The notes under the pieces were generated by a model. That model saw only the letters and a list, made by a program, of their open reading frames with translations. It did no database searches and was not told the origin of the DNA. A DNA stretch of 8,113 bases from a virus. Lineage: Duplodnaviria > Heunggongvirae > Uroviricota > Caudoviricetes. Shown piece after piece: positions 425 through 8,113 of the stretch. The stretch lies in the IMG/VR virus record IMGVR_UViG_2693429779_000008; one strand, given 5' to 3'. The number at the start of each line of letters is the position of its first letter. Position 1 is the stretch's first letter. The translations under genes were made by a program, and so were the position numbers.

Positions 425-452
425 TTGATTTTTCCGGAATCTGTGGTAAATT
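425..452 (+). promoter_or_regulatory. pR'-like late promoter candidate (TTGATT, 16-bp spacer, TAAATT)
   Basis: TTGATT at 425-430 and TAAATT at 447-452 with a 16-bp spacer, directly downstream of the Q-like stop codon. Lambda pR' also uses a TAAATT -10 element. Pattern match only. Confidence 0.3.
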
Positions 453-500
453 CGTCATAACGATGGGCGTTTTATGCCTGACGTTAGAAGAGTTTCTACA

Positions 501-523
501 ACCCGCCGCCGAGCGGGTTTTTT
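501..523 (+). terminator. Rho-independent terminator (tR'-like, type 1)
   Basis: 6-bp GC-rich stem ACCCGC/GCGGGT with loop CGCCGA, followed by a T-run (518-523). The same element with its upstream 14 nt recurs at 2579-2601. Confidence 0.6.
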
Positions 524-643
524 ATGACTGAAATCGCGTCAGTACAGTAAACGCGCTGGTGGCGGTGAATACCTGTCTTTCAGCTTGCTGGCTTTTTCGA
601 CAAGAGTTATTGGTGTGTCACGTTAACCGGAAAAGGAAAAGAC

Positions 644-841
644 ATGCTAAAACAGCAGGATATGACAGAAACCGCCAGAGTGGTGTTTAATGAATTAAGC
701 GTTACCGAACCGGCGACAGTCGGGGAGATAGCGCAGAATACTTACCTTTCACGCGAACGCTGCCAGTTAATACTGACCCAGCTGGTTATGGCGGGTCTGG
801 CAGACTATCAGTTCGGTTGTTACAGACGCCTTCCGCAGTGA
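644..841 (+). CDS. Small helix-turn-helix (winged-helix-like) protein, 65 aa, function unknown
   Basis: ATG at 644 is preceded by AGGAAA at about -12 to -7. The segment TVGEIAQNTYLSRERCQLILTQLVMAGL has typical HTH character. The stop codon lies inside a terminator hairpin (828-851). Confidence 0.6.
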   Translation: MLKQQDMTETARVVFNELSVTEPATVGEIAQNTYLSRERCQLILTQLVMAGLADYQFGCYRRLPQ

Positions 842-991: not shown

Positions 992-2050
992 ATGCTTAAT
1001 GCTGTAAAAATATCCAGTTGTGAGTTAATCAACGCCGACTGCCTGGAATTTATCCGGTCGTTACCCGAAAATTCTGTTGACCTGATAGTCACGGACCCGC
1101 CGTACTTTAAAGTGAAGCCTGAGGGCTGGGATAACCAGTGGAAGGGCGACGATGATTACCTGAAGTGGCTGGACCAGTGTCTGGCGCAGTTCTGGCGGGT
1201 GCTGAAACCTGCCGGAAGTCTTTACCTGTTCTGTGGTCATCGCCTGGCATCTGATATCGAAATCATGATGCGTGAACGCTTCAGTGTGCTGAACCATATT
1301 ATCTGGGCGAAGCCGTCCGGACGCTGGAACGGATGCAACAAGGAAAGCCTGCGGGCGTATTTCCCCGCCACAGAGCGCATTCTGTTCGCGGAACATTATC
1401 AGGGGCCGTATCGTCCGAAAGATGCCGGGTATGCGGCGAAGGGCAGTGCACTGAAACAGCATGTGATGGCCCCGCTGATTTCTTACTTTCGTGATGCGCG
1501 AGCTGCCCTGGGGATAACGGCAAAACAGATTGCAGATGCCACAGGAAAGAAAAACATGGTGTCGCACTGGTTCAGTGCCGGTCAGTGGCAGTTGCCGAAT
1601 GAAAGCGATTATCTGAAATTACAGGCGCTGTTTGCCCGGGTGGCAGAAGAGAAGCATCGGCGTGGTGAACTGGAAAAGCTCCACCACCAGCTGGTGGATA
1701 CGTATACCTCACTGAACCGGCAGTATGCGGAGCTGCTGAGTGAATATAAACATCTGCGGCGGTATTTTGGCGTGACGGTGCAGGTGCCGTATACCGATGT
1801 GTGGACGCATAAACCGGTGCAGTTCTATCCCGGGAAACATCCGTGCGAAAAACCGGCAGAAATGCTGCAGCAGATAATCAGCGCTAGCAGTCGTCCGGGT
1901 GACCTGATTGCAGATTTTTTCATGGGGTTGGGTTCGACAGTGAAAGCGGCACTGGCGCTCGGGCGTCGTGCAATTGGCGTTGAGCTGGAGACTGAACGTT
2001 TTGAGCAGACGGTTCGGGAAGTACAGGATTTAGTCAGCCAGAACGGATGA
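992..2050 (+). CDS. Orphan DNA methyltransferase, beta-class N6-adenine/N4-cytosine type (352 aa)
   Basis: Catalytic motif IV DPPY (VTDPPYF) lies near the N-terminus and the AdoMet-binding motif I (FFMGLGST...LGRRAIGVELE) near the C-terminus. This IV-before-I order is typical of beta-class amino-MTases common in phages. No adjacent restriction endonuclease gene is visible. Target specificity cannot be read from the sequence. Confidence 0.9.
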   Translation: MLNAVKISSCELINADCLEFIRSLPENSVDLIVTDPPYFKVKPEGWDNQWKGDDDYLKWLDQCLAQFWRVLKPAGSLYLFCGHRLASDIEIMMRERFSVLNHIIWAKPSGRWNGCNKESLRAYFPATERILFAEHYQGPYRPKDAGYAAKGSALKQHVMAPLISYFRDARAALGITAKQIADATGKKNMVSHWFSAGQWQLPNESDYLKLQALFARVAEEKHRRGELEKLHHQLVDTYTSLNRQYAELLSEYKHLRRYFGVTVQVPYTDVWTHKPVQFYPGKHPCEKPAEMLQQIISASSRPGDLIADFFMGLGSTVKAALALGRRAIGVELETERFEQTVREVQDLVSQNG

Positions 2051-2090: not shown

Positions 2091-2166
2091 GGCCCTTTAG
2101 CTCAGTGGTGAGAGCGAGCGACTCATAATCGCCAGGTCGCTGGTTCAAATCCAGCAAGGGCCACCA
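2091..2166 (+). tRNA. ileZ: tRNA with CAT anticodon, ileX/ileZ-like (tRNA-Ile2 read via lysidine, or Met), 76 nt with encoded CCA
   Basis: Hand-folded cloverleaf: acceptor GGCCCTT/AAGGGCC, D-stem GCTC/GAGC, anticodon loop CTCATAA, T-loop TTCAAAT, encoded CCA. Closely resembles E. coli ileX as recalled. The symbol is by analogy to Stx-phage tRNA clusters. Confidence 0.85.
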
Positions 2167-2173
2167 TCACATA

Positions 2174-2250
2174 CCGCCATTAGCTCATCAGGAAAGAGCG
2201 CCAGCCTTCGAAGCTGGCTGCGCGGGGTTCAAGTCCCCGATGGCGGTCCA
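2174..2250 (+). tRNA. argN: tRNA-Arg, anticodon TCG (reads CGA), 77 nt with encoded CCA
   Basis: Hand-folded: acceptor CCGCCAT/ATGGCGG (unusual C1-G72), D-loop ATCAGGAAA, anticodon stem CCAGC/GCTGG with loop CTTCGAA, T-loop TTCAAGT. The symbol is by positional analogy to the ileZ-argN-argO cluster of Stx phages and is not verified. Confidence 0.7.
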
Positions 2251-2263
2251 TTATCTGCATCAT

Positions 2264-2340
2264 GCGTTGTTAGCTCAGCCGGACAGAGCAATTGCCTTCT
2301 AAGCAATCGGTCACTGGTTCGAATCCAGTACAACGCGCCA
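2264..2340 (+). tRNA. argO: tRNA-Arg, anticodon TCT (reads AGA), 77 nt with encoded CCA
   Basis: Hand-folded: acceptor GCGTTGT/ACAACGC, anticodon stem ATTGC/GCAAT with loop CTTCTAA, T-loop TTCGAAT. Symbol by positional analogy. Confidence 0.85.
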
Positions 2341-2354
2341 CACTTATTTTCCCT

Positions 2355-2380
2355 GGCTCGCTTTTGCGGGCCTTTTTTTT
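2355..2380 (+). terminator. Rho-independent terminator after tRNA triplet 1
   Basis: 7-bp stem GGCTCGC/GCGGGCC (one G-U pair) with TTTT loop, followed by eight T residues (2373-2380). Confidence 0.6.
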
Positions 2381-2566
2381 AAATGTCTCACAATTCAGAC
2401 GGTTGACAGTTGTCTGTTTTGCGGGGAGTTTGTTAAAAGAAACTGGCATGGTGAATCCCCCTGTGCGGAGGGGCAATCAGCGAGTAGGTATATGGGATAA
2501 TCGCGGATTCAGGTGCTGGTACTGAATTCACCGGGAGGCACCCGGCATCATGCAATGGCACATAGC
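2381..2566 (+). repeat. Module copy A: TTGACA hexamer, conserved hairpins, ends ...CACATAGC; candidate promoter/leader or structured-RNA unit
   Basis: Near-identical to 3554-3739 and 4501-4686; a diverged homolog lies at 4961-5184. Contains TTGACA (2403-2408), hairpin CCCCT-GTGCGG-AGGGG, and hairpin CCGGG-AGGCA-CCCGG. Followed by the type-1 terminator. Confidence 0.8.
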
Positions 2567-2578
2567 AGAGTTTCTACA

Positions 2579-2601
2579 ACCCGCCGCCGAGCGGGTTTTT
2601 T
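2579..2601 (+). terminator. Rho-independent terminator (second copy of type 1)
   Basis: Same ACCCGC-CGCCGA-GCGGGT hairpin plus T-run as 501-523, including the AGAGTTTCTACA lead-in. Confidence 0.6.
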
Positions 2602-2640
2602 ATTGCGGAATTAATTACGGACCGTTATTATTCTGCTCCC

Positions 2641-2716
2641 GGCCCTTTAGCTCAGTGGTGAGAGCGAGCGACTCATAATCGCCAGGTCGCTGGTTCAAAT
2701 CCAGCAAGGGCCACCA
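2641..2716 (+). tRNA. ileZ: tRNA with CAT anticodon (second copy, identical to 2091-2166)
   Basis: 76 nt identical to the first copy. The upstream spacer GAATTAATTACG...CTCCC is also duplicated with a few substitutions. Confidence 0.85.
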
Positions 2717-2723
2717 TCACAAA

Positions 2724-2803
2724 CCGCCATTAGCTTATCAGGAAGAGCAGACGACATGATAACAGGGTTGTTGGTGCGGGGGCGGGTCCCCGATGGCGGT
2801 CCA
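2724..2803 (+). pseudogene. Degenerate tRNA-like element (paralog of tRNA-Arg TCG with rewritten anticodon and T arms)
   Basis: Acceptor stem CCGCCAT/ATGGCGG and D-arm are retained, but the anticodon region is replaced by about 28 nt that do not form a canonical 5-bp stem with 7-nt loop, and the T-loop is GCGGGT instead of TTCAAGT. Probably non-functional, or a tRNA-derived element. Confidence 0.5.
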
Positions 2804-2816
2804 TTATCGGTATTCA

Positions 2817-2893
2817 GCGTTGTTAGCTCAGCCGGACAGAGCAATTGCCTTCTAAGCAATCGGTCACTGGTTCGAATCCAGTACAGCGCGCCA
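2817..2893 (+). tRNA. argO: tRNA-Arg, anticodon TCT (second copy, one acceptor-stem substitution giving a G-U pair)
   Basis: Same cloverleaf as 2264-2340. The 3' acceptor strand is ACAGCGC rather than ACAACGC. Confidence 0.8.
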
Positions 2894-3003
2894 TATTCAT
2901 TCTTCCAGATTCCTTCCGGCAGAGCCTTATACTGAAATATACCTGGCTCAGGATATTGTTGAAAATATTTTATGTTTGTCAAAAATAAAAGTTCTGTTAA
3001 GTA

Positions 3004-3357
3004 TTGATTGAGTGTTTGTTATACGGTCTAATGGTTTTTTCAGCATTAAATATTTATCATTCATATGGTGTGGGTAGAGTGAATATTGATGAGGCGTCGG
3101 GGTGTTTCATCCTTAGGCAGCGTATTGATATAGTCAATGCAGCACGAGCAAAGGCCTTCAGCCGTTTGACAGTTTTGTTCTGTACTCCTGATCGTCTTTC
3201 GGGAAGAGACGTTATTATTCTGAATAGTGATGCTATACAGAGGGTTTGCGATGAGTTCATGGTTGCTAATTCAGAATTATTTGCTCTTGTTCAGGAGTAC
3301 AACAGAATAGCCAGGACCTGTGGTATGGATGAACTTCGGATTACTCATCTGGGGTAG
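3004..3357 (+). CDS. Hypothetical protein, no recognisable family; start codon uncertain
   Basis: Open frame from TTG at 3004 to TAG at 3355-3357; alternative in-frame starts are ATG 3031 and GTG 3070/3079, none with a convincing Shine-Dalgarno. Preceded by an AT-rich promoter-like stretch (2940-3003). Coding status is unproven. Confidence 0.3.
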   Translation: MIECLLYGLMVFSALNIYHSYGVGRVNIDEASGCFILRQRIDIVNAARAKAFSRLTVLFCTPDRLSGRDVIILNSDAIQRVCDEFMVANSELFALVQEYNRIARTCGMDELRITHLG

Positions 3358-3553
3358 ATACATATCTGGATTATCACCTGTTACGGTAAAAAGTGATTGC
3401 TTACTGTTTTTGTGAATGGCATTGCAGCAGCCGGATAATGTCAGTGCTGGCTGACGGTGTGCTGGTGGCGGGTGTGGTGGTTGTTGCTTTCCCGTTGCTG
3501 AAAAAGAAAACGCCAGACTGTTAGCCGGGTATCAGTTAGCGGGAGAAATTTTT

Positions 3554-3739
3554 AAATACTTCACAATTCAGGCGGTTGACTGTTGTCTGGTTTGCGGGGA
3601 GTTTGTTAAAAGAAACTGGCATGGTGAATCCCCCTGTGCGGAGGGGCAATCAGCGAGTAGGTATATGGGATAATCGCGGATTCAGGTGCTGGTACTGAAT
3701 TCACCGGGAGGCACCCGGCACCATGCAATGGCACATAGC
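3554..3739 (+). repeat. Module copy B (hexamer is TTGACT in this copy)
   Basis: Aligns base-for-base with copy A apart from a few substitutions near the 5' end. Followed by the type-2 terminator. Confidence 0.8.
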
Positions 3740-3749
3740 GCCACTCTCC

Positions 3750-3774
3750 AGCCCCTCTCCGGAGGGGCTGTTTA
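3750..3774 (+). terminator. Rho-independent terminator (type 2)
   Basis: 8-bp stem AGCCCCTC/GAGGGGCT with TCCG loop, then GTTTATATT. Confidence 0.6.
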
Positions 3775-3804
3775 TATTGATTTTGTCAGATGTGAGTAAA
3801 CTCC

Positions 3805-4140
3805 TTATGGACTTTGTTGTTTTAGTCCATAAGGACATATTTGCAGAGTGCAACGGTTATTAAAGCATTCATTCAATACGTTATCTGTATTTGTAGGGCA
3901 TTCCTGGCTATTTTTGATTGAATTCCAGAATGTTTTATTGAATGGTACTACGTTGTAAATGGTTACAGGTAGCACTTTGTTATTGAGCATGATGCCTGTG
4001 TGAGTCAGTGTAAATATACTTTCAGGAGGTAAGAAAGCATCCGATTGATACCAGATTATTAATTTTATTTTACTCCATATGACTGAAAAAGATATTCCGC
4101 ATGATGGCTGGATAACTGTATCAATCACAATCCACTTCAT
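3805..4140 (-). CDS. Hypothetical protein, 111 aa, with four cysteines in the C-terminal part, encoded antisense to the late operon in an AT-rich island
   Basis: On the minus strand the ATG at 4140-4138 is preceded by AAGGAAACTAA (good Shine-Dalgarno spacing). Composition is visibly AT-rich compared with flanking phage DNA. A perfect 12-bp inverted repeat (3802-3813 / 3824-3835) overlaps the stop codon. No family recognised. Confidence 0.45.
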
Positions 4141-4400
4141 TTAGTTTCCTTGTTTATGCCTTGCTGGTGATGTTCTGAAAAGTATAAATGATATTTTTGA
4201 ATGTAAACCATAGAGCAGAATTATTTTTCTGATGTTGTTTATTGTTTATTTAAATGCAGGGTGGTTTATATCTCGTCTTGTAGTTTATCCATGCATATCT
4301 GCTTGATAATCAGGTTTTTATTTAAGGTATGGTTTTGTGTTTTTTCTGTATTACATGTCAGGTATTTTAAAGAATTATTTTTCAGATGGTGGAAAGAACC

Positions 4401-4502
4401 ATGGCATTTAAACACTATGATGTTGTCAGGGCGGCGCCGCCGTCAGATCTTGCGGAAAAGCTGACACATAAACTGAAAGAGGGCTGGCAGCCATTTTTTT
4501 AA
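4401..4502 (+). pseudogene. Truncated paralog of the nanS-p 5' end (first 33 codons of the DUF1737-type N-terminus, then stop)
   Basis: Encodes MAFKHYDVVRAAPPSDLAEKLTHKLKEGWQPFF-stop; the full gene at 5436 begins MAFKHYDVVRAASPSDLAKRLTQKLKEGWQPFG. That is 5 differences in 33 residues. The frame ends where module copy C begins (stop TAA at 4500-4502 made by the junction). Confidence 0.65.
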
Positions 4503-4686
4503 ATGTCTCACAATTCAGACGGTTGACAGTTGTCTGTTTTGCGGGGAGTTTGTTAAAAGAAACTGGCATGGTGAATCCCCCTGTGCGGAGGGGCAATCAG
4601 CGAGTAGGTATATGGGATAATCGCGGATTCAGGTGCTGGTACTGAATTCACCGGGAGGCACCCGGCATCATGCAATGGCACATAGC
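4501..4686 (+). repeat. Module copy C
   Basis: Near-identical to copy A (TTGACA at 4523-4528, same hairpins). Followed by the type-2 terminator. Confidence 0.8.
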
Positions 4687-4696
4687 GCCACTCTCC

Positions 4697-4720
4697 AGCC
4701 CTCTCCGGAGGGGCTTTTCT
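4697..4720 (+). terminator. Rho-independent terminator (type 2, one-base deletion variant)
   Basis: AGCCCTC-TCCG-GAGGGGCT followed by TTTTCT. Confidence 0.5.
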
Positions 4721-4909
4721 GTGCCGGATACATCACAGTTTCTGGAACCTTAGGTACTACAGTATCAGTCAGGGTGCTATATTTTCAGATGTGATGAAAG
4801 CCTGTCAGCAGGCAGGGCGTATCGGAAATGACCCAGTAGAGAAAACGTTGACTCAGATACCGGTGCTGAGTTACCGGGAAACCGGCATCACATGACCGCT
4901 ATCCTTCCA

Positions 4910-4936
4910 GGCCCATCCGCTCCGGTGGGCCTTTTT
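4910..4936 (+). terminator. Rho-independent terminator
   Basis: 8-bp stem GGCCCATC/GGTGGGCC (one G-U pair) with 6-nt loop, then TTTTT (4932-4936). Confidence 0.55.
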
Positions 4937-4960
4937 ACTGCAGAAAACAGGTTCCCCGTT

Positions 4961-5184
4961 AAATGCTATGTTGCTCACAATTCAGTAAGTTGACAGTTGC
5001 CTGTCAGACTGGGCATTTGTTAAAAAAATTTCGCATGGTGAATCCCCCTGAGCGGAGGGGCGACTGGTGACGGTATAATCTCTGATTATCAAAACGAGAA
5101 TGACGCGGGTTTAGTGGCACCGGGCTGAACTCACCGGGAGGCACCCGGCACCATGTGCATGATGATACAGATACGCGGCTTTAG
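4961..5184 (+). repeat. Module copy D (diverged homolog of A/B/C)
   Basis: Shares CTCACAATTCAG, TTGACAGTTG, TTTGTTAAAA, CATGGTGAATCCCCCTG-GCGGAGGGG, a TATAAT at the position of TATATG in A-C, and CTCACCGGGAGGCACCCGGCA. Intervening segments differ and include insertions. Confidence 0.7.
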
Positions 5185-5204
5185 CCCCTCTCCGGAGGGG
5201 TTTT
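5185..5204 (+). terminator. Rho-independent terminator (type 2 variant) closing copy D
   Basis: Stem CCCCTC/GAGGGG with TCCG loop, then TTTTCTTGTG. An A7 run plus the GCCCGCG/CGCGGGC hairpin immediately downstream (5214-5242) would act as a terminator for the opposite strand. Confidence 0.55.
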
Positions 5205-5435
5205 CTTGTGGGCAAAAAAAGCCCGCGCTGGGAGACGCGGGCGGCAAGGAATAAACAATAAAACGTGAAGTAATATTTCAGCTGGCGAATAATACCCCAT
5301 AGTAATCACTCTGCGCAACTGCGCGGTCTTTTTCGAATTGCGGGCTGTCGTCTCTCTTCTGCCATTGTCCTGTAACTTCCGGACTTCAGCCCGCTCCTTA
5401 TTTTACTCACAATATTATCCCGGCCGGGAGGATTC

Positions 5436-7289
5436 ATGGCATTTAAACACTATGACGTGGTCAGGGCGGCATCGCCGTCAGACCTTGCGAAACGACTGAC
5501 ACAAAAACTGAAGGAGGGCTGGCAGCCGTTTGGTAGTCCGGTGGCCATAACCCCTTATACCCTGATGCAGGCGATTGCAGCAGAAGGTGATGTGGTCGTC
5601 AGTGGTGCAACTGAGCCGGAGTGGTACTACGTCATCGTACTGGCCGGGCAATCCAATGCCATGGCTTACGGTGAAGGTCTTCCGCTTCCGGATTCATACG
5701 ATGCGCCCCATCCGCGCATTAAGCAACTGGCCCGTCGTAACACAGTGACTCCCGGTGGTGAAGTATGCGTATTTAACGACATCATTCCTGCTGACCATTG
5801 TCTGCATGATGTTCAGGATATGAGTACGATTAACCATCCCCGGGCTGACCTGAGCAAAGGGCAGTACGGCTGTGTCGGACAGGGCTTACATATTGCCAAA
5901 AAACTGCTTCCGTATATCCCTAATAATGCGGGGATCCTGCTGGTACCATGCTGTTGTGGTGGTTCGGCATTCACCCAGGGCACGGAGGGGACATTCAGCG
6001 AGTCCACGGGGGCCAGTCAGGATTCGGCTCGCTGGGGAGTGGGTAAGCCGTTATATCAGGATCTGCTTTTCCGCACGAAGGCAGCATTGCAGAAAAACCC
6101 GAAAAACGTTTTGCTGGCGATATGCTGGATGCAGGGGGAATTCGATATGACGAATGCCAGTTACGCCCAGCAGCCAGCAGCATTTCTTGCAATGGTACAG
6201 CAGTTCCGTGCTGACCTTGCCGGGCTGGCGGCGCAGTGTCACGGTGGAAGTCCGGCATCAGTCCCCTGGATTTGTGGCGACACGACATACGCGTGGAAAC
6301 AAGAACACGGTACGCAATATGAAGTGGTATATGGTGCATATAAAGGTAAAGAATCCCAGCAGATTTATTTTGTTCCCTTTATGACCGATGGTAGCGGAGT
6401 TAATACACCGACAAACAACCCGTCAGAAGATCCTGATATTGCCGGGTCTGGTTATTACGGTTCGGCATCCCGAACGAACAAAAACTGGGTATCATCAAAT
6501 CGCCCGACGCATTTCAGCTCATGGGCGCGTCGTGGCATTATTCCCGATCGTATGGCAACTGCTATTCTGAACGTAGCCGGTCGCACCTTAGCCTTCATTA
6601 GTGGTAAGGCACCGGAAATCAAACCCTCGCCCGGCGGCGACACGCCATCGGGGCCGTCTGAAGATGCATCCATACGCACAATCTCCCTGTTGCCGACAGC
6701 CGGAGACGCTGCTGCGCAGGGCTGGAGCATTAAGAATGGCGGAGTTCAGTTGTCAGATGGTGTATTTAAGATCACCAAGCAGAGCAATAAAGCCTGGTCC
6801 CTGACGCGCCCGGTGGATGACGCAGTCTCCCTGCTGACACGGGGTGGCAGACTGAGCTGTAAGTTTCGACTGTCAGGCGCACTGACCAACAACCAGTTCG
6901 GTCTGGGAATTTATCTGTATACCGATGTAGCGTTACCTGACGTCGTGGCGATGACCGGGACTGGTAACCCGTTCCTGATGTCGTTCTTCACCCAGACCAC
7001 AGACGGCAAACTGAATCTGATGCATCACAAGAAAGCAGGAAACACAAAGTTGGGCGAGTTCGGGAATTACAGTAACGACTGGCTGACGCTGGAGCTGGTG
7101 TTCACCGCCGGCAGTGCCACGGTTACTCCGAAACTGAATGGAGTGGCTGGCCCGGCATTCCAGGTCATAAAAGACAGTCTGACACTGGGGCTGAATGCGC
7201 TGACGCTGACGGATATTACCAAAAATGCAGCGTATGGCGTTGAGATAGAAAGTCTGGTGCTGGAGATAAATGCACCGGCATCATCATAA
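5436..7289 (+). CDS. nanS-p: Prophage NanS-p-type sialate O-acetylesterase (DUF1737 N-terminus, SGNH/SASA esterase core, C-terminal domain of unknown function), 617 aa
   Basis: ATG at 5436 is preceded by GGGAGG. The GQSNA motif carries the SGNH-family catalytic serine. The N-terminus matches the DUF1737 pattern of Stx-prophage esterases that normally lie between the stx/tRNA region and the lysis genes. Recognition-based; no search was run. Confidence 0.9.
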   Translation: MAFKHYDVVRAASPSDLAKRLTQKLKEGWQPFGSPVAITPYTLMQAIAAEGDVVVSGATEPEWYYVIVLAGQSNAMAYGEGLPLPDSYDAPHPRIKQLARRNTVTPGGEVCVFNDIIPADHCLHDVQDMSTINHPRADLSKGQYGCVGQGLHIAKKLLPYIPNNAGILLVPCCCGGSAFTQGTEGTFSESTGASQDSARWGVGKPLYQDLLFRTKAALQKNPKNVLLAICWMQGEFDMTNASYAQQPAAFLAMVQQFRADLAGLAAQCHGGSPASVPWICGDTTYAWKQEHGTQYEVVYGAYKGKESQQIYFVPFMTDGSGVNTPTNNPSEDPDIAGSGYYGSASRTNKNWVSSNRPTHFSSWARRGIIPDRMATAILNVAGRTLAFISGKAPEIKPSPGGDTPSGPSEDASIRTISLLPTAGDAAAQGWSIKNGGVQLSDGVFKITKQSNKAWSLTRPVDDAVSLLTRGGRLSCKFRLSGALTNNQFGLGIYLYTDVALPDVVAMTGTGNPFLMSFFTQTTDGKLNLMHHKKAGNTKLGEFGNYSNDWLTLELVFTAGSATVTPKLNGVAGPAFQVIKDSLTLGLNALTLTDITKNAAYGVEIESLVLEINAPASS

Positions 7290-7374
7290 AAAGTGAGCCA
7301 GCCAAATGGAAGGTATCGTTAAACTCACCGGTAGTGTCAGTGGGTCGTCTGAGATGCCTGCATGAGTTATCAGA

Positions 7375-7404
7375 GCCATCAGTACTTAACTGGTGGCTTT
7401 TTTT
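7375..7404 (+). terminator. Rho-independent terminator downstream of nanS-p
   Basis: Stem GCCATCAG/CTGGTGGC (one G-U pair) with loop TACTTAA, then TTTTTTT (7398-7404). Confidence 0.6.
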
Positions 7405-7439
7405 ATTGTTGTCAGCTTCCGGATAACGGGAGACGGGGT

Positions 7440-7655
7440 ATGTACCAGATGGAAAAAATCACAACAGGTGTGTCATACACCACGTCAGCGGTGGGAACGG
7501 GCTACTGGTTCCTGCAGTTGCTGGACAGGGTTTCCCCGTCTCAGTGGGCGGCAATAGGCGTGCTGGGGAGTCTGCTGTTTGGGCTGCTGACATATCTGAC
7601 TAACCTGTATTTCAAAATCAGAGAGGACCGTCGTAAGGCTGCACGGGGAGAGTAA
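7440..7655 (+). CDS. S: Class II pinholin, phage 21 S-type, with dual start motif (MYQM...)
   Basis: GGAGACGGGG Shine-Dalgarno precedes ATG 7440, with a second in-frame ATG at 7449, matching the antiholin/holin dual start of S21. The sequence ...[51 protein letters not shown] matches S21 as recalled. The ORF track's longer ORF from 7362 runs through the upstream terminator and is unlikely to be translated. Confidence 0.85.
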
Positions 7656-7659
7656 TTCA

Positions 7660-7974
7660 ATGACTCAAAACTATGAACTGATTGTGAAAGGGATCCGCAA
7701 TTTTGAGAATAAAGTTACGGTAACTTTAGCGTTACGGGACAAAAAACGCTTTGACGGTGAAATTTTTGACCTGGACATCTCGCTGGACCGTGTTGAAGGT
7801 GCCGCGCTGGAGTTTTATGAGGCAGCAGCCAGAAGGAGCATCAGACAGGTCTTCTTGGATGTTGCTGCCGGGTTATGTGAAGGGGACGAGCTGTTGCCAG
7901 AAACGCGCCCCTGTTCAGAGGCGCGGTATACCATAAAAATTAACAGTTCTGATAACTCGATTACGGGTTGTTAG
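7660..7974 (+). CDS. Hypothetical lysis-cassette protein (104 aa) between holin and endolysin
   Basis: ATG at 7660 is preceded by GGGGAGAG that overlaps the holin stop. Acidic, soluble-looking sequence. I recall similar small ORFs (possibly DUF1327) in this position in E. coli prophages, but cannot verify. Confidence 0.55.
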   Translation: MTQNYELIVKGIRNFENKVTVTLALRDKKRFDGEIFDLDISLDRVEGAALEFYEAAARRSIRQVFLDVAAGLCEGDELLPETRPCSEARYTIKINSSDNSITGC

Positions 7975-8029
7975 CTTTTTGCAGTTGGCTTTCCAGTATC
8001 TTTCATTGGTAGCATCCTGATAAATATCC

Positions 8030-8113
8030 ATGAGCGCAAAAATCAAATACGGCCTGTCAGCTGCTGTTCTGGCGCTGATTGCAAAATGGCATCTGAATCG
8101 ATCGCAGTTTGGC
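8030..8113 (+). CDS. Probable endolysin (signal-anchor-release type) N-terminus, 3' partial
   Basis: ATG at 8030 opens MSAKIKYGLSAAVLALIA..., an Ala/Gly/Leu-rich weakly hydrophobic N-terminus typical of SAR endolysins that partner with pinholins. Only 28 codons lie inside the window and the Shine-Dalgarno is weak. Confidence 0.4.
   Translation, partial: MSAKIKYGLSAAVLALIAKWHLNRSQFG

Follow-up and report, generated by a model that had tools for sequence, protein, structure and literature searches.

NanS-p (YjhS) proteins of lambdoid and Stx phages carry a DUF1737, a SASA and a DUF6645 domain, and sequence variants of NanS-p DUF1737 have been described (PMC10462455). Small RNAs of the STnc100/PasD family lie beside sialic acid esterase genes, and the family is linked with esterase, holin and lysozyme genes in a preprint (bioRxiv 10.64898/2026.05.13.724894). 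Three further systems resemble the locus described here, namely the nanS-p remnant truncated by an insertion sequence (IS) beside iraM in Shigella sonnei, the chimeric contigs that repeats induce in draft assemblies, and the products of microhomology-mediated template switching.

The window, by which we mean the whole of the 8,113-nt stretch analysed, is the entire contig CXBH01000176.1 of the draft S. sonnei assembly GCA_001253915.1 and represents a lambdoid prophage late-regulatory region (Table 1). At 4401-4502 a 5′ relic of nanS-p is fused to a copy of STnc100 (copy C, or module C). Comparison of the window with finished genomes suggests, with a probability of roughly 80%, that this fusion is an assembly misjoin joining two S. 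sonnei loci with common repeats, named P1 and P2 below, and that software rather than the cell made the join. The alignments and searches themselves show which parent every segment comes from, that finished genomes have the two loci apart, that the junctions are unique and where the breakpoints lie in repeats.

Table 1. Features of the 8,113-nt window, in order of position. J1 and J2 are the junctions between segments of P1 and P2 origin.
Feature	Position	Strand	Basis or remarks
Antiterminator Q gene, 3′ part	to 419		
PR′/tR′-like promoter-terminator region	about 430-530		
65-aa ORF	644-841		
DNA methylase	992-2050		
tRNA-Met(cat), tRNA-Arg(tcg), tRNA-Arg(tct)	2091-2340		
Intrinsic-terminator-like hairpin 2355-2372 and T8	2355-2380	+	Terminator scan; downstream of tRNA-Arg(tct)
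First 193-nt P1 segment, copy A	2374-2566	+	T-run and module A
STnc100 copy A	2417-2608	+	Rfam; tR′ hairpin borrowed as terminator
Junction J1	2566-2567		STnc100 body (...TAGC) against P2 tR′ terminator region (AGAGTTTCTACAACCCGCC...)
P2 block	2567-4492	+	tR′ terminator, tRNA-Met(cat), decayed tRNA, tRNA-Arg(tct), 117-aa ORF, DUF3927, STnc100 copy B, iraM, nanS-p nt 1-92
Second tRNA set (P2 type)	2641-2893		Partly decayed
117-aa ORF	3004-3357		
DUF3927 ORF	3393-3524		
STnc100 copy B, P2 type	3590-3779	+	Rfam, 132.4 bits
iraM, anti-adapter IraM homologue, 111 aa	3805-4140	-	RefSeq annotation of matching loci; exact protein named IraM [Shigella sonnei]
Relic ORF, 33 codons	4401-4502	+	First 31 codons of nanS-p (YjhS/SASA esterase), then Phe-Phe-stop off the T-run
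Junction J2, orphan A	4493		Matches neither parent (G in P2, T in P1)
Second 193-nt P1 segment, copy C	4494-4686	+	T7 and 5′ two-thirds of STnc100
STnc100 copy C (module C)	4537-4726	+	Rfam, 123.6 bits, model positions 1-206
STnc100 copy D	5004-5213	+	Rfam, 161 bits; directly 5′ of intact nanS-p
Intact P1 nanS-p, 617 aa	5436-7289	+	Pfam; DUF1737, SASA, DUF6645
P21-type holin and DUF1327/YdfR gene	3′ of nanS-p		

The nanS-p fragment

The relic ORF begins with ATG at 4401, ends with the TAA stop codon at 4500-4502 and has the translation MAFKHYDVVRAAPPSDLAEKLTHKLKEGWQPFF. It forms part of a direct repeat of 106 nt (4391-4496 and 5426-5531) with 85% identity. Relative to the intact downstream nanS-p, 12 of 96 nucleotides and 5 of 33 residues differed, and six of the 12 nucleotide differences were synonymous single-site changes, so that the divergence given in the preliminary description was reproduced; the fifth residue difference is a product of the junction itself. 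The likeness of the peptide to Pfam DUF1737 (PF08410) was above chance level, with a score of 43.6 bits (E=2.8e-11; the cut-off is 24) over profile positions 1-30 of 53 only. The ATG of the relic corresponded to the annotated start of the full-length SASA esterases of E. coli YJ4 and AF39. The preliminary description had reported a 33-codon relic of the nanS-p 5′ end, and such a relic is indeed present, its start and the sequence before it being those native to a real gene.

The relic and NanS-p (YjhS) thus have in common the start codon, the region upstream of it and the 31 initial codons. Unlike NanS-p, it comprises 31 of 617 codons without the SASA catalytic domain and therefore cannot be an esterase; no SASA domain (PF03629) followed DUF1737 in the Pfam analysis of the ORF, which stops at 33 codons. 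The native start and the ribosome-binding region are retained, so that any transcription of the region could lead to a short peptide. Having 31 residues of a 53-residue domain and no catalytic part, such a peptide would have no plausible activity. The 33-aa product nevertheless holds protein accessions of its own (CSO55859.1 and WP_252857448.1), with the source name "YjhS [Shigella sonnei]".

Two parent loci and the block between J1 and J2

The segments of the window were found at two separate loci, P1 and P2, lying about 0.8 Mb apart in finished Shigella chromosomes. P2 is located near 1.31 Mb and P1 at 2.09-2.11 Mb in S. sonnei 53G, which we take to be record HE616528.1. The order at P1 is Q, PR′/tR′, the 65-aa ORF, the methylase, three tRNAs, a terminator, STnc100, a weak STnc100-like element, a further STnc100, nanS-p and holin. 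P2, a degraded second prophage, has the order Q, tR′, tRNAs, DUF3927, STnc100, iraM and the 5′ end of nanS-p. Both types of late region occur in E. coli, the P1 type for example in strain H3 (L005), with the terminator and T8 before STnc100, and the P2 type in strain 042 (L006) and in YJ4 and AF39 (L001 and L003), the last two with the methylase.

The P1 locus was examined in nine other contigs carrying the exact nanS-p, four of them of chromosome length (including HE616528.1) and five of 10-134 kb (L133-L137). P1 was unbroken in all nine, with 1,265-1,266 nt between the end of the methylase and the start of nanS-p versus 3,385 nt in the window, and none of the nine contained iraM, J1 or J2 at this locus. 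The exact intact nanS-p protein is present on 499 contigs, named YjhS or SASA esterase [Shigella sonnei].

The P2 locus was examined in ten chromosome-length records with the exact IraM at a locus other than P1. The relic in these records continues as ...GCCGTTTGGTAG... to about nt 129, where an IS3-family element begins; its normal continuation is also represented by ...GGCTGGCAGCCGTTTGGTAGTCCGG... and GGCTGGCAGCCGTTTGGTAGTCC. The nanS-p remnant of P2 forms an ORF of 57 or 62 aa in finished genomes and is a non-functional scar of IS insertion in a decaying prophage. Over nt 1-92 the window relic was identical (92/92) to its P2 counterpart in ten chromosomes, 53G among them, including the codon for Pro13, and the context of iraM, STnc100 and DUF3927 was the same. 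The Ser13Pro substitution of the relic is accordingly the native Shigella allele. The two differ at the 3′ side, the P2 remnant running to about nt 129 and the IS3-family element whereas the relic of the window ends at nt 92 against the P1 T-run. The iraM-linked nanS-p allele of E. coli YJ4 and AF39 matched the relic at 94 of 96 nucleotides, and iraM travels with this allele; the exact IraM protein of the window was present on about 1,000 S. sonnei contigs.

These alignments indicate that the relic is a real but ordinary pseudogene remnant. Together with its upstream spacer, it represents the beginning of the nanS-p allele that is linked to iraM in a second prophage lineage. Because the relic matches that allele, its divergence from the intact nanS-p is allelic, between two prophage lineages. 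The fragment had been described as an old paralog of the downstream gene; the comparison contradicts this, as the relic did not diverge in place but is the allele of the other prophage. Much of what the preliminary description had itself set against its mechanism was thus observed, the junction being missing from finished genomes of the species and the fragment being identical to the nanS-p 5′ end of another prophage, in other isolates rather than in the source isolate.

The window as a whole is composed of P1 sequence (1-2566), P2 sequence (2567-4492) and P1 sequence again (4494-8113). The P2 block was identical to P2 of 53G at 1926 of 1926 positions and had 99.5% identity with E. coli 042. 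When the comparison with 53G P2 was extended to 2563-4496, the junction bases C2566 and A4493 were the only mismatches. Against P1 of 53G, positions 1-2566 had two mismatches and positions 4490-8113 had one (A4493), and these two parts of the window overlap by 197 nt on the 53G sequence. A segment of 193 nt occurs twice, 4494-4686 being identical to 2374-2566, and both copies map to a single 53G segment (L129, 7059-7251).

At J2 the sequence reads GGCTGGCAGCC-A-TTTTTTT-AAATG. The sequences spanning the junctions are GGCTGGCAGCCATTTTTTTAAATGTCTC for J2 and GGCACATAGCAGAGTTTCTACAACC for J1, while the normal P1 continuation is CACATAGCGCCACTCTCC, preceded by the P1-specific GGCATCATG. A4493 is the one mismatched position of an imperfect overlap of 7 nt, GCC-G-TTT in P2 and GCC-T-TTT in P1. 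The parents share no long k-mer at J1 or J2, where the microhomologies are TAG and GCC/TTT, respectively. Three of the four breakpoints lie inside exact stretches shared by P1 and P2, of 33, 63 and 52 nt.

Several features of the window lie outside the question of the join. The second tRNA set retains tRNA-Met(cat) and tRNA-Arg(tct) of the set at 2091-2340, and its middle tRNA-Arg(tcg) is decayed, no tRNA being detected at about 2717-2816 by ARAGORN or Rfam; the tRNA with the cat anticodon in the second set is annotated as tRNA-Ile in RefSeq. The IraM homologue (3805-4140) had no Pfam match at E<=0.01, and a precomputed index lists PF11183 (PmrD) for the identical protein. A hairpin with a T-run is present at about 7370-7405 in the spacer between nanS-p and holin (7290-7440) and had no Rfam match; in related prophages this spacer is the site of the PasA/PasC sRNA genes, according to the preprint (bioRxiv 10.64898/2026.05.13.724894).

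The lysozyme gene that begins at 8031 extends for only about 50 nt before it is broken by a mobile element end (8081-8113) with repeats of about 23 nt containing TTTGGCAT, and the window stops 33 nt inside this element. At the equivalent position in 53G (L129, 10645-10929), IS3-family and IS21-family transposases follow the element end. The same element end cuts the relic at nt 69 in another Shigella draft contig (FTVJ01000050.1; L132, 1-8000), in which the unit iraM, relic, IS end, methylase, tRNAs and STnc100 occurs twice in tandem; this tandem unit is either an IS-mediated rearrangement or a graph cycle traversed twice. The contig was considered as a second relic misjoin and rejected, its break at nt 69 being an IS end.

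Origin of the join

Searches for the junctions elsewhere were negative. None of 5,426 complete E. coli genomes and none of 50,697 phage records matched J2 contiguously, and its exact pattern was absent from genome, metagenome and viral contig collections. No contiguous match to J1 was found in the 5,426 complete E. coli genomes, the sole collection searched for it. BLAST of short junction windows against E. coli genomes returned only two-piece pseudo-matches, in which a nearby module and the start of nanS-p were joined. By exact look-up in an index of 153 billion genes, the 33-aa product occurred on a single contig, CXBH01000176.1. Hundreds of other S. sonnei draft contigs stop at nt 90-125 of the relic because the sequence turns repetitive there. 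Alignment with related prophages, which had been suggested as a means of finding the unbroken arrangement, revealed P1 and P2 as separate loci in all finished chromosomes examined; the genomes compared are those of other isolates of a clonal species and not of the source isolate.

The arrangement therefore resembles a repeat-induced chimeric contig, in which a block from another locus stands between identical repeat copies, the breakpoints lie in exact shared repeats, offsets are k-mer-like, and the junctions are absent from finished genomes that hold both flanks as separate loci. In the predicted course of events, the STnc100 repeat was the point at which the P2-specific stretch 2567-4492 entered the P1 path, and the 193-nt P1 repeat was therefore written twice, as copies A and C. 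Such a splice would yield two artificial junctions, J1 (2566/2567) and J2 (4492-4494), and the relic ORF with its Phe-Phe-stop ending would be a by-product of the join, with no need for a special recombination at T-runs. The P2 block is indeed the P2 stretch between two flanks that are near-identical to P1. One exact stretch shared by P1 and P2 ends 37 nt beyond the start of the block and another ends 38 nt beyond its stop, and the first base of the window is the first base after a P1/P2 SNP. The offsets of 37 and 38 nt resemble a k-mer regularity, but differ by one; a k-mer block with k of about 38-39 may have been written by its first bases and then concatenated to a node that was not truly next.

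The likeness to a repeat-induced chimera has a limit in that the joins of the window are without a common k-mer. With no long k-mer in common, J1 and J2 cannot be products of a plain de Bruijn chimera, and concatenation in a scaffolding or gap-closing step must be assumed. P1 and P2 alone do not account for the points at which copy A ends (P1 7251) and copy C starts (P1 7059); these would need a third identical STnc100 copy or noise in the length of the T-run. It had been asserted that the fragment was not an assembly duplication. That assertion stands insofar as the relic is no duplicate of the downstream gene, but the junction itself bears the hallmarks of a misjoin.

A real rearrangement private to the isolate appears unlikely, but is the alternative that best survives the evidence from sequence. 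It would consist of a 1.9-kb copy of P2 inserted into P1 with a 193-nt duplication, produced either by two microhomology-guided template switches (P1 to P2 to P1) or by two successive illegitimate crossovers, and the relic ORF would then be a true fusion scar. The lack of a k-mer common to the parents at either junction speaks against the simplest graph chimera and to that extent for a real event, as does the microhomology at both joins (TAG at J1, GCC-N-TTT at J2), which is also expected from real illegitimate recombination. Copies A and C are identical, as if one P1 template had been copied twice, and the segments are otherwise clean and free of Ns. Template switching in particular would match a path that leaves P1 for P2 and re-enters P1 upstream of where it left, with microhomologies of 3 nt and one untemplated base; the positions of the breakpoints relative to the repeats are, however, better explained by assembly.

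Other observations count against a real event. The junction is a singleton in the gene index, and P1 and P2 are separate in all finished chromosomes examined. Chance alone would have to place both ends of the block at 37 and 38 nt from where short exact P1/P2 repeats end. The orphan A4493 fits neither template, whereas G or T would be the expected base there in a biological join at the GCC[G/T]TTT microhomology. Homologous recombination across the long shared flanks would be far likelier than two illegitimate joins, and the arrangement offers no selective rationale. If it were nonetheless real, replication would have left P1 for a prophage remnant at a distance of 0.8 Mb and then returned, at microhomologies of 3 nt beside two intrinsic terminators, and iraM, two tRNAs and two extra STnc100 genes would have been added to an otherwise intact late operon. 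This would be a tidy microhomology-mediated exchange between prophages, yet ordinary lambdoid mosaicism.

STnc100 copies, T-runs and nanS-p alleles

Modules A-D are four full matches to the STnc100 sRNA of Rfam (RF02076), with scores of 119-161 bits against a gathering score of 47, and belong to the sRNA family found beside sialic acid esterase genes. The window differs in number, with four full copies in 3 kb compared with two at the finished P1 locus. The two extra copies are A or C, from the P1 segment written twice, and copy B of P2. Copy A is cut off at ...CACATAGC, short of its own terminator, and Rfam scores it as full-length because the second tR′ copy (2567-2603) replaces the missing terminator. 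The tR′-type terminator downstream of Q (AGAGTTTCTACAACCCGCCGCCGAGCGGGTTTTTTAT) is present twice in the window, at 485-525 and 2567-2603.

A sub-threshold STnc100-like element was also observed at 4765-4938, between copies C and D, with a score of 30 bits against the gathering score of 47 and a terminator-like hairpin of its own at 4909-4932. The element is possibly a diverged relative, for example PasD, whose relation to STnc100 is described in the preprint (bioRxiv 10.64898/2026.05.13.724894).

The hairpin at 2355-2372 is the true context of the T-run that is repeated at 4494-4500. The same succession of hairpin, T8 and STnc100 was found in E. coli H3, in S. sonnei 53G and in about 100 of 120 viral contigs. 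The terminator scan reported no stem before copy C, where there is only T7, preceded by nanS-p coding sequence. The preliminary description had likened the junction before copy C to that before copy A. The two do have the T-run in common, but they are the same P1 segment used twice, and the hairpin is missing before C.

From that likeness the preliminary description had developed a model in which the paralog diverged in place and STnc100 modules were spread by recombination at terminator T-runs, and this we consider very improbable. The model can draw on the T-run common to copies A and C and on the two alternative left flanks in phage populations, both of which meet the module near TTTAAAT, forming a mosaic boundary. 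Against it, the relic is identical, without drift, to a widespread allele of the other prophage, copies A and C, T-run included, are one and the same P1 segment, and copy B has no terminator T-run in front. The left flank of the module was of two types only in 120 viral contigs, a tRNA terminator in about 100 and the end of the DUF3927 gene in about 17, and in none of the 120 was a fragment of nanS-p or of another gene fused to the left edge of the module. The module edge is thus a mosaic boundary of the kind usual in lambdoid phages, and the insertion of modules at T-runs found no evidence.

Mosaicism was likewise seen in the nanS-p alleles themselves. Comparison of 5436-5531 with the alleles of YJ4 and AF39 (L001 and L003) revealed a sharp boundary, with ten differences in nt 1-78 and almost none in the following 1.1 kb or so; the ten differences are linked to the upstream context, either iraM or STnc100 copy D. 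In the L001 allele the sequence diverges a second time, at about nt 1200-1400. The iraM-linked nanS-p of E. coli 042 (L006, 5839-6185) carries a different lesion, having lost about 1.5 kb internally, so that only a DUF1737 fragment and a C-terminal fragment remain, and varied nanS-p remnants are therefore common in resident prophages.

The least credible proposal is that the order of the window is ancestral and that a deletion between its two 5′ repeats gave rise to the common order of iraM and full-length nanS-p. It is consistent with allele types that differ at ten sites in nt 1-78 and are then near-identical for more than 1 kb, since crossing over near nt 79-96 would yield the common allele again. 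It was rejected because no other genome contained the supposed ancestor, whereas the derived form occurs in hundreds, because the lack of informative sites after nt 78 gives the coincidence with the end of the relic little weight, and because copies A and C are 100% identical, which implies a very recent or artificial origin.

Under the assembly misjoin favored here, the window serves as a caution. Draft assemblies of Shigella and E. coli strains with multiple prophages can string segments of different prophages into one contig, and the "fusions", extra sRNA copies and small ORFs of such contigs invite mechanistic stories.
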